Position numbers and translations under genes: made by a program. From the IMG/VR virus record IMGVR_UViG_3300022562_001757, positions 1 through 64,000 of that record: a stretch of DNA of 64,000 bases; one strand, 5' to 3'. Positions 1,459 through 8,493 of this stretch are shown here, in pieces. How positions within the stretch are numbered: position 1 is the stretch's first letter; every line of letters begins with the position of its first letter. The notes under the pieces were generated by a model. That model was given only the letters and a program-made list of their open reading frames with translations. It was not told the origin of the DNA and made no database searches. Origin of the DNA: a virus.

Positions 1459-4400
1459 CTAGGCGTAGATGGCCGCGAAGCCACGGTCGCTGAGCTGGCG
1501 GCGGTAGCGGTAGAGGAGGAACCAGAGGGCCTCGGCCGCGGCAGCCGTGTCGAGGTTGTAGCGGCAGAGCACCACCGCGCGCACGGCGTCGGGCTTGTTG
1601 AAGCCCACACCGTCCTTCTCGATGGCGCCGTCGCAGTGGTTCAGCATGTCCTCATGGGCCCGAATGAGGAGCTGCCGGTACTCGGGATCTGAGATGCGCT
1701 CAGGGGCCTTGAGAGGCTTCTGAGAGCCGTTGGACACGCGGGCCTGCTCCTGCTCACAAATGCGGTCCACGAACGTCTGGTGCGCCTTACGCTCGGCCTC
1801 AGCGGCCTTCTGCTGGCGCTCCGACTCGGCCTTGGCCAGCTTCGCCTGGTGAGCGTCGACGCGGGCCTGCCACTCGGCATCCGACTCAGCCATGACCTTG
1901 ACCGGCGGCGGGGGAGGCGTGTAGCTCACCTCGGCCTCGATGGCGCCCTCGATGAGCCGCTTCTTCTGGTCGAGAAGGTCGTACACCCGCTTCTCCAGCG
2001 AATGATCCACCACCAGGCGGATGTACTCCAGGCTGGAAGCGGTCTGGCCGATACGGCGGATGCGGTCCTCAGCCTGAAGAAGTGTACCAGGTACCCATGG
2101 GAGGTCCACGAAAATCATTCGGCTCGCGTGCGTCAGGGTGAGACCCTCGGCACCGGCGGCGATCGTGAGCGCCACGCCCTTGAGCTTGCCGGACTGAAAG
2201 TCGCGAACCACATTCGCGCGATCCTCAGGAGTCATCGAACCGATAATCATGCCCCACCCCTCGCGAGCGCCAAGTGCCTCCACCGGAGCACGGTGCGCGG
2301 AGAAGACCACGATCGGTTCGTCGGCTTCTTCGTAGCTCTCGACCAGCTCGATGAGCGCGGGGATCTTCTCGGAAGCCAGGTCGGCGCGCAGCGAGGAAAA
2401 CATCTCGAATGGGGGCAGCTCGCCAGCTGAGAGGAATGCATCCGACACGTCCTCCAGCGCGTCCAGTTGCTGCCGCAGACCCTTGCTGATATCATTGACC
2501 AGAATGTGCTGGTAGCGCTTTGTGGGCAGCGAGGTGAGCACGTCGTCCTTGCGACGGCGAAGCATGACCCGGCGCATACGCTCGGCGGCCTCAGGCAGCG
2601 GCTTTGGCGCGAAGTCCCAGCCACCCCAGCGATTCTTGTGCCCACCGAAAAGCGTCACGAAGCGGTCGAATTTACCGAACACTTCCCACGCCAGGCCGCC
2701 GGCGTTGAGCGTGCCCCAGAGGTCGAAGGGACGATTCGCCAGCGGGGTACCGGTAAGCAGCCAGGTCGTAGAGGAGACCTTCGCCACCGCGGTGATTTTC
2801 TTGGTGCGCGCCGACTTGTAGTTTTTTACGAAGTGGCAATTGGAAACCAAGACGCCATCGGCTACGTAGTTGTGATTATCGGCTACTTCAAGATTGTAGA
2901 CAAAATCGTCTTGGCTACAGATTCCGGATCCCGAAGTATTTCCTCGTTCCAGAATCTCAATACGGACCACCCGAGATGATCCAGAACGAAGTTTTTCCTT
3001 TTGTCCAGGAAGCGCCACTTTTTTGACCGATGCGTGTTTCCGTCGACCTCGATAGCCGTCTTTGACTCCGGGTGCGCAATGTCCACTTGGTAGAACTTTG
3101 GCAGACTGCTTAGCAGACCCGGATTTATGCACGTAAGAGCCGTCCGTGCCTTTCCGAGTTTTATTGTGTACTCCAGCGCAAACCCAGGGCCAAGTAGATC
3201 GAATAGCGTTTGCTGGGGCATTGTGATTTGCGGCTTTCCGCCGCGCCGCAAAAAACTTGGATTCTCCGTATGAAATTTGGCAGCCGCTGCCATTACCTTG
3301 GAGCGGAAATCTGGGTCCTTGTTTAAGCGCGTCATGCGCTCCGATGCGGCTGAATTGCATCTCCCCTGCATTGGATGGCCAACTTTCTCTAGACGTTGTT
3401 TGAGACGATGACTCAACTCTTCCCGATATGCAGGCTTGGTGCATCTGTAGATCGACCAGCATGACTTCGTGCAGAAGCGCTGTTTTGGCTGATTCGTTTT
3501 GACGATGAAATCCATCCCGCAGCCTGCGCACGCGCGCTTGCACTCCGGTGCCTTGTTTGCAGCGGCTATTTTCGCCTTGACCTCCGGTCTGGAATTGGTG
3601 CTCTTGGCGGCGCATGCTTTGGAACAGAACCTCGCTGTTGATTTTCCTCTTTTCTGTGTCATGAACGTTGTCTGACAATGTTCGCAGACGCGCTCCACAA
3701 CGGAGCGATCCCGCCGCAACGTACCCTTCGTCTGTCCAGATTTTGTGGTTGGATGTGCAGGTGAACTCTCCGTCTTCATGAACCACCTTCACCAGAGAGT
3801 TATGCCTTTTATGCCGCATCCAGCGGGAAACTGGCTTGTACTCCCAGGTCTTTAGCTCTATATTAAAGGAAATAGCGTTGACCTGCAACTTGTTTTCAAC
3901 AATGTCTTGGATTTTCAGTAGCCCACGGTCTGTTAGAATCTCCGTGCTCCCCGGGAAGCACTCGTCCACCACCAGGACCACATCCGAGAAATTCGCGGCT
4001 TCCTTTTCCAGCGGCGCCTGGGTGTAATTCACGATGATGATTTCGCCCGCCTCAGGAGCCCGCGCACGGCCCGCGGTCACGACCGGGGTAAAGTCGGGGC
4101 GCCACTTCAGAGTCTCGTCGCGCCACACGTAGCGAACGGAATTCGGGCAGACCACCAGCACACGAGAGTCAGGCTCCAGTGCCATCAGCACCTGGACCGT
4201 GTTGTGCGTCACGATAAAATCGTCGGTCACGTACAGGTTGTCCTCAGCCGCTACGCGAATGCACTGTGCTGGCTTCTGCCCAATCGCAACGACGTTCACG
4301 ATAGCACGCGTAGGTCCATACTTCCCTTGGCGTCGTAGCGCTTTGACTTTCCTGTCGAGCTTAAACGGGTTGATGCCGTTTGGCATAGTGATGATTAGGC

Positions 4401-5772
4401 GCCACGAGCGATTTCCTGTGCGCGACTCCCCGTTGTAGGTGTAGGTCGGAATCCTCGACGACAATGTTGCAGTGCCACCAAGGCTGCGCACCAAGTGTAG
4501 TACATCCTCTGCCAAGTCTTGGCTAGACGATGAAAATTCAATAGTGGAATTATCGTACGCACTTCCGTCCGTGTCCAGAAGACCGGCCAGAAGTTCGCGG
4601 CGCTGCGCTACCGTTCCGAATAGATAAGGTCTAGGGATAAATTTGTCCGTGGATGAGCAGCCCCACAATGCCAGGTCTCTGAGTGCCTCGGTAATAGGAT
4701 TGGTATTCGAGTCTCTTCCACTAGACAAAGAGAAGTCTACGCAATGATCGTGAGCCGCCAATTGAGACACATGGACGCCATCGGGCAGGCGCTGCGCAAT
4801 GATTTCGGAAATAGCGGCGTCAGACGTGATAGTAGGGGTTCCGGAAATTATAGATCCGTCACCCAACAGTGCACCCAGAACATAGGGATCAATGGGTAGC
4901 GCCTGCGCATTGAACTCCACTGGGTCCACCATGGGAATGAAATGCTTGCAGTTGCCAGCCTTGTCGCGAAGGCCGACTTCCATGATGGCGCGCAATGACA
5001 ATGTTTGGTACCCCGAACCGCGCTTTTTGCGTGTGGGGGTAATGACGTTCCACAAGTGCTCTTCACAGCACTCAGTGCTCGCCCCATCGGAGAAGGTCAC
5101 ACGATAAATCTGCTTCTTGCCTTGTGGATACACGCCAATAACTGGCGTTGGCTGGCCGTTGCTCCCGATAACCAGGTCACCTACCTGGATAGTAAGCATG
5201 AGCTTCCAGCCCTTTGGCGTTAGAATCGCCGCATCCAAGGGTTGCGCTTTTCCGAGGCCCATGTCGTCGGCGAGTAGAGCGCGGTTGTGGAGCGCGAGGA
5301 ACTCGACACCGTCGACCTGGTAGTCGTACAGGCCGGTGTCGGCACAGCGGGCGAGGGCGCGGTCCCGGCGAGGATCGCTGAGGACGCGCAGCTCGTCGTC
5401 CACGTTGAGCTGGAGCTTATCGGCGACTTCGAGCACGCGGGCGCGGTGCTTGGCGTCGGCGGAGCAGGTCCATTGCTTCAGCTCGGGGTTCCAGCGGGCG
5501 CCGGGAAGGCTGCGCAGGAGAGGGAGCGCGTCGCGGTCGAACTCCATGACGATGCCCAACAGGAGGGCGCTAACCTGGATCAGGCGGCGGATGGTCTGCT
5601 GCACACCAACACCCTCGATTCCGTGCGGCTCGGCGCAGCGCGCATCGTTGCACACGCTGAACCACTTACCGTGACTATTTTTCGTCGACCAACCCTGTCC
5701 AACCGCGAGAGTCTTGCCGCAGGTGAGGCACTTCGAGTCGCGCTTGTTTCGGATTTTGAAAGTCGTCGTCAT
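1459..5772 (-). CDS. SNF2/SWI2-family (HARP/SMARCAL1-like) helicase with two inteins
   Basis: LYDYQVDG Q-motif, LLADDMGLGK|T Walker A, VVDE|CH Walker B, LTGTP, MLRRRK, GAEGLTL, QAEDRIRRIGQ; N-terminal CxxC zinc ribbon and ARWNPELKQW HARP-like segment; GGAGGA RBS. Confidence 0.95.
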   Translation of the reverse strand: MTTTFKIRNKRDSKCLTCGKTLAVGQGWSTKNSHGKWFSVCNDARCAEPHGIEGVGVQQTIRRLIQVSALLLGIVMEFDRDALPLLRSLPGARWNPELKQWTCSADAKHRARVLEVADKLQLNVDDELRVLSDPRRDRALARCADTGLYDYQVDGVEFLALHNRALLADDMGLGKAQPLDAAILTPKGWKLMLTIQVGDLVIGSNGQPTPVIGVYPQGKKQIYRVTFSDGASTECCEEHLWNVITPTRKKRGSGYQTLSLRAIMEVGLRDKAGNCKHFIPMVDPVEFNAQALPIDPYVLGALLGDGSIISGTPTITSDAAISEIIAQRLPDGVHVSQLAAHDHCVDFSLSSGRDSNTNPITEALRDLALWGCSSTDKFIPRPYLFGTVAQRRELLAGLLDTDGSAYDNSTIEFSSSSQDLAEDVLHLVRSLGGTATLSSRIPTYTYNGESRTGNRSWRLIITMPNGINPFKLDRKVKALRRQGKYGPTRAIVNVVAIGQKPAQCIRVAAEDNLYVTDDFIVTHNTVQVLMALEPDSRVLVVCPNSVRYVWRDETLKWRPDFTPVVTAGRARAPEAGEIIIVNYTQAPLEKEAANFSDVVLVVDECFPGSTEILTDRGLLKIQDIVENKLQVNAISFNIELKTWEYKPVSRWMRHKRHNSLVKVVHEDGEFTCTSNHKIWTDEGYVAAGSLRCGARLRTLSDNVHDTEKRKINSEVLFQSMRRQEHQFQTGGQGENSRCKQGTGVQARVRRLRDGFHRQNESAKTALLHEVMLVDLQMHQACISGRVESSSQTTSRESWPSNAGEMQFSRIGAHDALKQGPRFPLQGNGSGCQISYGESKFFAARRKAANHNAPANAIRSTWPWVCAGVHNKTRKGTDGSYVHKSGSAKQSAKVLPSGHCAPGVKDGYRGRRKHASVKKVALPGQKEKLRSGSSRVVRIEILERGNTSGSGICSQDDFVYNLEVADNHNYVADGVLVSNCHFVKNYKSARTKKITAVAKVSSTTWLLTGTPLANRPFDLWGTLNAGGLAWEVFGKFDRFVTLFGGHKNRWGGWDFAPKPLPEAAERMRRVMLRRRKDDVLTSLPTKRYQHILVNDISKGLRQQLDALEDVSDAFLSAGELPPFEMFSSLRADLASEKIPALIELVESYEEADEPIVVFSAHRAPVEALGAREGWGMIIGSMTPEDRANVVRDFQSGKLKGVALTIAAGAEGLTLTHASRMIFVDLPWVPGTLLQAEDRIRRIGQTASSLEYIRLVVDHSLEKRVYDLLDQKKRLIEGAIEAEVSYTPPPPPVKVMAESDAEWQARVDAHQAKLAKAESERQQKAAEAERKAHQTFVDRICEQEQARVSNGSQKPLKAPERISDPEYRQLLIRAHEDMLNHCDGAIEKDGVGFNKPDAVRAVVLCRYNLDTAAAAEALWFLLYRYRRQLSDRGFAAIYA
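2839..3960 (-). mobile_element. intein 2 (class 1, Cys1...Ser-Asn, +1 Cys) in the DECH box, 374 aa
   Basis: CFPGSTEILT block A, CTSNHKIW block B, VYNLEVADNHNYVADGVLVSN blocks F/G; removal restores VVDECHFVKN. Confidence 0.92.
2883..3779 (-). CDS. alternate-frame Zn-finger + Vsr/DUF559-like PD-(D/E)XK endonuclease nested inside intein 2
   Basis: CEHC...RFCSKAC and CAGC...RFCTKSC zinc modules, SERMTRLN, then YQVDIA...AIEVDGNTH...DKRKN..L..LGWSVLRFWNEEI; frame offset by +1 from the helicase; start may be GTG 3698. Confidence 0.85.
   Translation of the reverse strand: MKTESSPAHPTTKSGQTKGTLRRDRSVVERVCEHCQTTFMTQKRGKSTARFCSKACAAKSTNSRPEVKAKIAAANKAPECKRACAGCGMDFIVKTNQPKQRFCTKSCWSIYRCTKPAYREELSHRLKQRLEKVGHPMQGRCNSAASERMTRLNKDPDFRSKVMAAAAKFHTENPSFLRRGGKPQITMPQQTLFDLLGPGFALEYTIKLGKARTALTCINPGLLSSLPKFYQVDIAHPESKTAIEVDGNTHRSKKWRFLDKRKNFVLDHLGWSVLRFWNEEILRDPESVAKTILSTILK
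4201..5247 (-). mobile_element. intein 1 (Ala1, class 3 WCT type) with LAGLIDADG homing endonuclease, in the Walker A motif, 349 aa
   Basis: AQPLDA start, ECCEEHLW, AQCIRV, VTHN end; LGALLGDG and LLAGLLDTDG LAGLIDADG helices; removal restores GLGKTVQ. Confidence 0.93.
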
Positions 5773-7611: not shown

Positions 7612-7849
7612 GGCCCGACTTGAACGGGCTGGCTTCCAAGCGCACAGACATAGTGCGGCTTTTCGGGCATGGCGCCGCTACCATCGACAGATATGTCCTA
7701 TCTGCCCTACGGTGCTTGACGGCATCAGTACCGTCTCTAAAGGCCAGCACCGCATGACCTACTGCATGACCGCCACACGACAAGAGACGCGGTCTGAGGC
7801 TAGCAGCGGAGCCTTTTAGACGCACCCAGACTTGAACTGGGAACTTTGT

Positions 7850-7858
7850 TGTTACAAT
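7850..7858 (+). promoter_or_regulatory. extended -10 promoter for a leaderless HNH transcript
   Basis: TGTTACAAT ends 5 nt before ATG 7864; no SD; TTGAAC (antisense T-loop) lies upstream. Confidence 0.5.
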
Positions 7859-7863
7859 ATAGC

Positions 7864-8493
7864 ATGAAAGCAAAACCAATGGTCAAATTAAAGTGCACGC
7901 ATTGCGGAAAACTGTTCCTTCGTAATGCGAGTCATTATCAACAAAACCTAGAGCGGCAGCAACGCATATTCTGCTCACTCGTTTGCCAAAATGAAGGAAA
8001 GAAGAAGGCATGCCAAGAACACGCTTGTAAAAACTGTGGAACGCCTACCAAGAACCCAAAGTTTTGCTCCAGAGCGTGCAGTGCTACCTATAACAACCGT
8101 AGAAGTCCAAAACGCAAGCTCCAGAAGTTGTGCAAAGTTTGCGGAAAAGCTATTAATGCCAAAGTAACCTATTGTTCTGCCTGTTTTAGGCAAAAGTGCC
8201 AGCGTATAGACAATTTGCGCCTGCAAGACGTTCAAGCACACTATGGGTCCAGAAATAGTTACACCACTATGGTTCGCCAACGGGCACGTCATGCTGCTGA
8301 GGCGCTTGGCATTCTGTCCTATTGCAGCGTTTGCGGTTACAGTGCGCATGTGCACTGCTGTCATATCAAACCCGTTAGCGCCTTTCCACTTACCACTAAG
8401 CTCAAAGTAGTTAATAGAGCTAGCAATTTGGTTGGCCTATGCCCAAATCACCATTGGGAATTCGACCACGGGTTGCTAAAATTACCTAAGTAG
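7864..8493 (+). CDS. HNH endonuclease with multiple N-terminal zinc-binding modules
   Basis: CTHC/FCSLVC/CKNC/FCSRAC/CKVC/CSAC, then CSVCGY...HCCHIKPV...N...NLVGLCPNHHWEFD; more AT-rich than its flanks. Confidence 0.9.
   Translation: MKAKPMVKLKCTHCGKLFLRNASHYQQNLERQQRIFCSLVCQNEGKKKACQEHACKNCGTPTKNPKFCSRACSATYNNRRSPKRKLQKLCKVCGKAINAKVTYCSACFRQKCQRIDNLRLQDVQAHYGSRNSYTTMVRQRARHAAEALGILSYCSVCGYSAHVHCCHIKPVSAFPLTTKLKVVNRASNLVGLCPNHHWEFDHGLLKLPK

Follow-up and report, generated by a model that had tools for sequence, protein, structure and literature searches.

A DUF559/Vsr-like nuclease gene in the +1 frame of a DnaX-type intein in a phage helicase gene, and its probable role in homing

Must the homing endonuclease of an intein be encoded in the frame of the intein itself? 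In the textbook view, intein endonucleases are in-frame domains. The question is raised by a SNF2-family helicase gene in the virus record IMGVR_UViG_3300022562_001757 (IMG/VR), of which positions 1 to 64,000 were analyzed and are called the window throughout. This gene holds two inteins, and the second of them (intein 2) has an open reading frame (ORF) for a zinc-module nuclease lying inside its DNA, on the same strand and in the +1 frame. A first reading made from the letters alone, hereafter the sequence-only reading, had proposed that a homing-type nuclease is encoded separately and that the intein frame is a spliced-out passenger, and the recurrence of the arrangement, the frame-specific selection on it and the Shine-Dalgarno motifs at its candidate starts all support that proposal. 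Our overall view is that the locus is probably a DnaX-type intein at the Walker-B motif with an overprinted +1 homing endonuclease gene, separately translated, the whole acting as a homing element.

The product of the helicase ORF matches the Pfam families SNF2-rel_dom (E-value 5.7e-17) and Helicase_C (3.9e-14), and its frame contains zero stops from end to end, the host gene being a single unbroken ORF. Intein 2 starts with CFPGS directly after VVDE and ends with LVSN directly before CHF, and thus splits the Walker-B/DExH box; its removal would join VVDE to CHFVKNYK and restore the DExH box. When compared with the Spl DnaX mini-intein (PDB 7cfv), intein 2 aligned in two pieces, residues 3-99 and 353-374 (4.5e-11), and Cys1, the block B motif TSNH and Asn374 were all found, which bears out the earlier claim of intact splicing blocks. 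Between the two matching pieces lie 253 residues, where the mini-intein has a connector of about 20. The loop between the splicing halves is the usual endonuclease position of inteins. As the sequence-only reading had described, the in-frame middle region is rich in R, S, G and Q: residues 85-335 of the intein in the helicase frame contain 10.8% S, 10.4% R, 10.0% G and 6.8% Q. No Pfam endonuclease family was matched in the helicase-frame linker of intein 2, and LAGLIDADG matches in the helicase frame were found only at residues 390-446, within intein 1, with none in intein 2.

The same features recur among relatives of intein 2. Cys1, His72 (block B TxxH) and Asn374 are invariant among 64 intein relatives, 61 of which match Pfam Intein_splicing in the host frame at E <= 0.001, and in none of the 64 did the host frame match a Pfam endonuclease family. 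At the last intein codon AAY is 100% conserved across 67 loci, and in the window the terminal Asn is followed by Cys at +1 (LVSN then CHF). Among solved structures the intein family profile is nearest to the mini-intein 7cfv (6e-22), and it also matches gp41-1 and NrdJ-1, split inteins of the 'fractured genes'. Two features of the window copy speak against the reading. Ser, not His, precedes the terminal Asn, and the Intein_splicing match scored 28.0 bits, below the cut-off of 35.8. A penultimate His is usual in inteins but dispensable in some; the ending VSN is common to many SNF2-hosted relatives, and VHN occurs in other subgroups. Judged by its sequence, intein 2 is a DnaX-type HINT element, and splicing is predicted. 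The coordinates of all features are collected in Table 1.

Table 1. Features of the helicase gene and of its two inteins (positions in the window; all on the minus strand).
Feature	Positions	Strand	Description
SNF2-family helicase precursor ORF	1459..5772	-	1437 amino acids; hosts two inteins
Intein 2	2839..3960	-	374 amino acids, helicase residues 605-978, between VVDE and CHF
N-terminal splicing domain of intein 2	3664..3960	-	Residues 1-99; block A CFPGS, block B TSNH; based on alignment to 7cfv residues 4-95 and the consensus of intein alignment A3
Helicase-frame linker	2905..3663	-	Intein residues 100-352; stop-free, no detectable amino-acid constraint
C-terminal splicing domain	2839..2904	-	Residues 353-374, FVYNLEVADNHNYVADGVLVSN, then Cys+1
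Double-open stretch	2886..3788	-	903 nt / 301 codons stop-free in the helicase and +1 frames
Nested +1 ORF	2883..3779	-	298 codons from ATG 3779; stop at 2885..2883
Two CxxC...FCxxxC zinc modules	3459..3686	-	Putative DNA-binding part of the nuclease
DUF559/Vsr-like nuclease core	2895..3092	-	Residues 210-275 counted from TTG 3719
Intein 1	4201..5247	-	Residues 176-524; starts with Ala; in the P-loop between GLGK and T; in-frame LAGLIDADG_3 (2.8e-8); outside the double coding

The nuclease is found in the +1 reading of this same DNA. The earlier estimate of about 900 nt open in both frames was accurate, and the nested ORF lies wholly within intein 2; the third frame has 14 stops across the same span. 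The motifs quoted for the +1 product were all recovered, comprising the zinc-module pairs CEHC/FCSKAC and CAGC/FCTKSC followed by YQVDIA, IEVDGNTH, LDKRK and GWSVLRFWN. The 298-residue product matched Pfam DUF559 at 7.1e-13 (48.8 bits against a cut-off of 20.6), MTES_1575 at 1.2e-9 and PDB 3hrl at 2.8e-5, in agreement with the predicted Vsr/DUF559-like nuclease. With respect to the zinc modules, zf-FCS was matched at 3.4e-4 with 21 bits, just below its cut-off of 22.4, and profile matches to the L24e and MYM zinc ribbons were obtained at E of about 0.01. No NUMOD-type DNA-binding motifs were found in the N-terminal half of the nuclease, where the CxxC...FCxxxC modules are present instead.

Conservation of the expected functional residues was assessed in 74 aligned members of the nuclease family, every one of which matched DUF559. 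Counted from TTG 3719, residues D213, E224, D226 and H230 are invariant, while at least 90% of the sequences retain D239, K242 and the zinc cysteines C64, C67, C83 and C87; the sequence-only reading would have been undermined by unconserved catalytic residues, and these were not seen. The family profile matched PDB 3hrl at 7.4e-15 and PDB 3r3p, the catalytic domain of I-Bth0305I, at 7.1e-4. In the alignment to 3r3p, residues E224, D226, H230 and D239 fall at or adjoining its active-site positions: an Asp stands opposite Asn208 of I-Bth0305I, and E, H and D lie within one position, while the first Asp is outside the aligned stretch.

Further observations concern the two ends of this protein. 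Many nuclease C-termini in alignment A1 (P0003, P0005, P0006, P0008-P0011) have a conserved TSK...TTTT tail. Since this tail overlaps the host-frame intein motif (R)VxSVEILExG, the last 25 or so nuclease codons appear, from the aligned sequences, to be constrained in both frames simultaneously. Elsewhere in the window, a free-standing ORF of 215 amino acids (7846..8493, plus strand) has CxxC...FCSxxC zinc modules and an HNH-like C-terminus; its modules resemble those of the nested nuclease at the level of motifs only (best pairwise E 0.012). A comparison with PHROG also matched HNH families to the zinc part of the nested protein. Together, the likeness to this ORF and the PHROG matches suggest a zinc DNA-binding module common to different phage nucleases.

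The arrangement is not peculiar to the window. Two sets of relatives were assembled: 83 phage loci, made up of the best 80 of 273 confirmed IMG/VR relatives from a pattern scan together with 3 GenBank phages, and a cellular set from a scan of one genome per prokaryotic species, in which the best 80 of 220 confirmed relatives were taken. In 81 of the 83 phage loci the nuclease ORF lies wholly inside a far longer ORF, the codons of the longer ORF being set one base ahead; in every one of these nested loci the third frame is closed. The same +1 nesting was present in 48 of the 50 loci from bacterial or archaeal assemblies that matched at least 180 query residues; short stand-alone DUF559 genes, from Rhizobiales and others, are not nested. 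When GenBank phages were searched by tblastn with the nested protein, 40 records were matched (37 Vibrio, 2 Corynebacterium and 1 Pseudomonas), and megablast of the whole helicase gene against GenBank phages gave zero matches. In Vibrio phage CP-T1 (gp10; L001), Vibrio phage 1.194.O (NVP1194O_69; L002) and Pseudomonas phage MR14 (gp44; L003) the match lies inside a helicase-type coding sequence at an offset of 1 modulo 3. The nested ORFs of these three phages have about 240-260 codons, and the coding sequences that contain them are named 'putative helicase' or 'coil containing protein', with the intein and the nuclease gene both unannotated.

A homologue with the nuclease in the frame of its host, a finding which the sequence-only reading had said would refute it, did not turn up. 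Across the phage and cellular loci no nested locus had a nuclease-frame ORF longer than 377 codons, and no in-frame fused homologue was found among proteins of 523-2000 amino acids, which is weak evidence. An exhaustive profile search returned 1031 clusters (50% identity) at E <= 1e-30; among the best 150 of these, 149 are 202-434 amino acids long, and the remaining one, of 1662 amino acids, shows 17 matches to zinc modules and nothing that suggests an intein host. One IMG/VR locus of the 'SSILK' helicase group (L055) has a nuclease-frame ORF of 357 codons and no recognizable intein junction at the C-terminal side; this copy may have decayed or been rearranged.

Selection on the two frames was analyzed in several ways. 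The substitution, junction, frame-identity, start-codon and tree analyses exclude L036, which is truncated where its locus ends, and the two loci without nesting, L063 and L068; the conserved-junction part and alignment A3 exclude L055, whose C-terminal junction could not be placed, and L056 and L061, for which the junction had been assigned wrongly; alignment A2 is without L055 and P0008, and both A2 and A3 are without L001-L003. The nuclease ORF of the window has 0 stops in the helicase frame against a mean of 12.3 after synonymous-codon shuffling, and 0 of 500 shuffles were as low. Across 73 distinct nuclease ORFs, 71 have 0 host-frame stops against a shuffled mean of 12.4, and for 69 of the 73 none of 500 shuffles was as low as observed. 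As a control, stops in the third frame numbered 21.6 observed against 20.0 shuffled, and are therefore not avoided. In the relatives L063 and L068, which are not nested, the frame that nested copies keep clear is broken by 16 and 12 stops respectively; they thus provide a natural control, and are also a possible source population. L068 is free-standing, as is L063 (3369-4244 of that locus, plus strand), a gene with three zinc modules that is flanked by unrelated phage genes.

The pattern of substitutions shows which of the two readings is conserved. Counted per site at nuclease codon positions 1, 2 and 3, differences amounted to 0.236, 0.228 and 0.41 in the 14 pairs that share at least 60% identity, and to 0.396, 0.362 and 0.578 in 224 pairs; substitutions are thus most frequent at nuclease position 3, which is host position 1, and fewest at nuclease position 2, which is host position 3. 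Amino-acid identity was likewise highest in the nuclease frame, with values for the nuclease, host and third frames of 0.355, 0.199 and 0.203 (1703 pairs), 0.493, 0.328 and 0.302 (116 pairs) and 0.673, 0.520 and 0.479 (11 pairs). The peptide of the host frame is thus conserved no better than that of the closed third frame. The alignment underlying these identities was guided by the nuclease protein and favors that frame; the closest pairs, which align unambiguously, agree with the rest. Constraint on the +1 frame had been anticipated in the sequence-only reading, and both the substitution peak at position 3 and the greater conservation of the nuclease peptide are in accord with it. At the level of the family, then, the nuclease frame is under purifying selection and the host frame is merely kept stop-free.

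Where the element sits was determined from 67 resolved junctions. In all of these the intein is placed after the DE of Walker-B (in some cases DExx), with Cys as its first residue, Asn as its last and Cys or Ser behind it; the consensus of the flanking DNA is GAYGAR-TGYCAY, the hyphen marking the insertion point. The hosts, as named from motifs of the C-extein, include SNF2 helicases, DEAH-type helicases, clamp-loader/DnaX-like ATPases, terminase-like proteins and giant helicase-containing proteins; a family search was made for the window helicase only. In a quick tree, nuclease clades group by host type with several switches, the number of host-type changes being 17 against a shuffled mean of 44.0 (0 of 200 shuffles as low). 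Host-type labels for the tree came from rough regular expressions on the first C-extein residues, and the tree was used only for host-type clustering. The window nuclease groups with SNF2-hosted nucleases, with a best identity of 48%.

Several observations bear on how the window helicase came by its intein. The GC content of intein 2 is 0.511 and that of intein 1 is 0.538, compared with 0.633-0.646 in the three extein pieces. The nearest relatives of the helicase, as judged by the C-extein, are L165 and L166 (50-52% identity), which have an uninterrupted CDEV-HLCKNYK and no intein. A further intein-less relative, L179, reads FDE-CHFVKNYK, which is the exact spliced junction predicted for the window. 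Both the low GC content of the inteins and the existence of close relatives without an intein favor gain over old inheritance. They are signs of mobility, as is the occurrence of L063 as a free-standing relative of the nuclease. The helicase gene of the window also has a canonical intein (intein 1) and a non-canonical one (intein 2) side by side.

The mechanism that we favor would operate as follows. The +1 frame of the endonuclease loop of the intein holds what is probably a homing endonuclease gene of the free-standing type. Its product has two putative zinc-ribbon modules for DNA binding, followed by a middle region that is conserved and by the DUF559/Vsr-like nuclease. During translation of the helicase, ribosomes would read through in frame 0 and produce a linker of about 250 amino acids, on which the sole constraint would be the lack of a stop codon, and this linker would leave with the intein at protein splicing. 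The nuclease would be made separately, by internal initiation within the helicase messenger RNA (mRNA), as the signals at the candidate starts suggest. It would then cut intein-less alleles near GAYGAR-TGYCAY, and repair would copy the intein and the nuclease gene together. These last two steps are proposed on the basis of family membership and of the presence or absence of the intein among relatives.

One alternative is that the nested gene of this particular phage is a disused relic, or that it has a role other than homing, such as cutting the DNA of competing phages, with the intein being inherited only vertically. We consider this unlikely. What lends it some weight is that the nearest relative of the window nuclease is only 48-49% identical, too distant to gauge selection on the window copy, so that selection is demonstrated for the family and not for this copy alone. 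In addition, the DNA was found in one sequencing run only, a marine sediment metagenome that is probably its source. The window copy nevertheless retains all of the catalytic and zinc-binding residues that are invariant in the family, its ORF is full length and its avoidance of helicase-frame stops is still perfect, while the base composition and the intein-less relatives described above point to gain and not to purely vertical descent.

With regard to translation of the nuclease, 63 of 70 loci have an ATG, GTG or TTG within 20 codons before the first CxxC. A Shine-Dalgarno core of at least 5 nt precedes the start in 24 of the 70, compared with 2.9% of 2017 control windows from these host genes, likewise in the +1 frame (p = 1.5e-19). 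In the window, residues LRRDRSVVERVCEHC align with the M(S/L)R..R....R.CE.C of homologues, which places the homologous start at TTG 3719. The sequence-only reading had named GTG 3698 as a possible start, and it remains a candidate, as does ATG 3779; the alignment of the homologues' ATG makes TTG 3719 the most likely start. A promoter scan of 2600..4200 gave, on the strand of the nested ORF, nothing upstream of it, with two weak matches elsewhere against 0.5 expected, and RNA folding around the candidate starts (3680..3800, minus strand) gave nothing unusual (z = 0.72); in the absence of a promoter-like site or unusual RNA structure, the nested gene would most simply be read from the helicase mRNA. 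Neither of these null results favors independent expression of the nuclease, nor do three further observations: 7 of the 70 relatives lack a start codon in the 20 codons ahead of the first zinc module, the Shine-Dalgarno matches of the window itself are weak (GAAGGG before TTG 3719 and AGGT before ATG 3779), and no RNA run was listed that contains this DNA. On balance we infer that the nuclease is translated on its own from an internal start.

The relatives without a nearby start codon and the weak signals of the window could also be accommodated by programmed +1 ribosomal frameshifting out of the helicase frame, which would yield a fusion of N-extein, N-intein and nuclease, and the fact that every nested case has the same +1 offset might be taken in its favor. 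A shared offset is, however, also predicted by descent from one ancestor. Moreover, a start stands at the homologous place in nine-tenths of the loci, with Shine-Dalgarno motifs enriched about 12-fold, no in-frame stop or other pause signal was seen in the helicase frame, where RNA structure is likewise unremarkable, and relatives that stand free, L063 for example, begin at an ATG of their own that has GGAGG upstream. Nothing requires that the nuclease be reached by frameshifting, and we regard this route as very unlikely.

A lone metagenomic contig by default invites the question whether frameshifts that compensate each other arose in assembly, so that the nuclease is truly in frame; nothing specific speaks for this, and it is hardly credible. 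It leaves unexplained both the 903 nt open in two frames and the +1 nesting, present in 81 of 83 phage loci and in 48 of 50 cellular ones, which were assembled independently and include cultured phages with complete genomes. In addition, a second assembly of the probable source run (a Logan contig, word depth 20.8) has identical letters with no indel, even if this contig, coming from the same sample, gives only weak and non-independent support. The double coding is neither artefact nor chance.

Arrangements of this kind have precedents. Gorbalenya is reported by citing papers to have described in 1998, under the title 'Non-canonical inteins', endonuclease homologues in alternative or antisense frames, including a case in dnaX. 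In a recent preprint, Gosselin, Arsenault and Gogarten (2025; 10.1101/2025.01.02.630785) classified 63 of 784 actinophage inteins as non-canonical, with hosts that include DNA polymerase, minor capsid, terminase and thymidylate synthase genes. The types given there are in-frame HNH, antisense LAGLIDADG, antisense VSR-like and frame-3 endonuclease VII-like; invasion by a free-standing endonuclease gene is proposed, and annotation pipelines are said to overlook such ORFs. Its inteins resemble intein 2 in having the endonuclease in a separate ORF in the middle of the intein, an open host frame and an in-frame middle of unrecognizable structure. The family described here differs from the types listed in being DUF559 with zinc modules, on the same strand and in the +1 frame, and in lying at the Walker-B motif of helicases, clamp loaders and terminase-like proteins.

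Closer still is the cyanobacterial dnaX intein of Phillips, DeSimone and Gogarten (2026 preprint; 10.64898/2026.09.14.751524), in which a LAGLIDADG endonuclease occupies a '+2 ORF', with frame-dependent ratios of nonsynonymous to synonymous substitution (dN/dS), Shine-Dalgarno motifs before the inner start and a disordered in-frame region. The two systems share the same-strand overlapping ORF, frame-dependent selection, Shine-Dalgarno motifs and a splicing domain of the Spl DnaX type. Unlike the cyanobacterial case, which is called a rarity, the present arrangement involves a DUF559/Vsr-like nuclease and not LAGLIDADG, is in the +1 and not the +2 frame, is found in phages and is the rule in its family.

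The fractured phage genes of Dassa et al. (2009; PMC2677866) have a Vsr-like or GIY-YIG endonuclease gene between the halves of a split intein. They have in common with intein 2 a free-standing-type endonuclease gene of the Vsr superfamily at the endonuclease position of the intein, a location in phage replication genes, and an overlap of the 3' end of the endonuclease gene with the downstream intein part. There, however, the host is broken into two ORFs that are joined by trans-splicing, whereas the host ORF of the window is contiguous, because its endonuclease gene avoids host-frame stops. The model of Dassa et al. gives fractured and in-frame outcomes and, in the same available text, no contiguous out-of-frame form.

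Two further systems resemble parts of the locus. The EDxHD homing endonucleases have as their prototype I-Bth0305I (Taylor et al. 2011, PMC3239194; PDB 3r3p), whose gene lies in a group I intron and which binds DNA through NUMOD motifs. This enzyme is bipartite, with an N-terminal DNA-binding part and a C-terminal Vsr-like nuclease, as the nested protein appears to be; the latter has putative binding by zinc modules and is far nearer to DUF559, as represented by 3hrl, than to 3r3p. The ShiLan insertion in a phage methylase (Arsenault et al. 2025, PMC11855218) hides an HNH endonuclease that lies out of frame, and is like intein 2 in that the endonuclease gene is concealed out of frame and the host frame is stop-free. 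In contrast to intein 2, it is without a splicing domain and remains as a loop of the protein, and its nuclease is of the HNH type. A same-strand +1 DUF559/Vsr-like gene in an unbroken intein, or a Walker-B family of such elements, was not found in the literature covered, the supplementary lists of Gosselin et al. being outside the search. Where the sequence-only reading had left undecided whether the arrangement was new, the kind as such is already in print for other endonuclease types, and a same-strand +1 DUF559 nuclease with zinc modules matches no combination of type and orientation described in the available text of these sources.

A more far-reaching interpretation may also be offered, tentatively, as one that we find possible but doubtful. 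Overprinting would here be a stable, selected design and not an accident on the way to a split or in-frame intein, and would define a very large undescribed phage partnership (1031 clusters) that targets the Walker-B DE-C(S) codons common to unrelated P-loop NTPases and moves between helicases, clamp loaders and terminases. The overlap would lock the nuclease gene to the intein, because only rare in-frame deletions could remove the nuclease without breaking the host gene, and ribosome traffic in the host frame would throttle expression of the nuclease. Such locking, if true, would explain a lineage without the usual decay of the endonuclease.

The out-of-frame layout, which recent preprints call rare, is the rule in a family of hundreds of phage and prophage loci in several unrelated ATPase genes. 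A systematic blind spot in annotation is thereby flagged, since gene callers drop nested ORFs, and the nucleases, which join zinc-ribbon modules to a Vsr-like domain and whose activity is predicted, constitute an untapped set of site-specific enzymes. The family fills the gap between 'fractured' split-intein genes and canonical inteins, shows how a homing element can hop among genes with a common nucleotide-binding motif, and provides a clean natural system for studying the upkeep of two overlapping readings.

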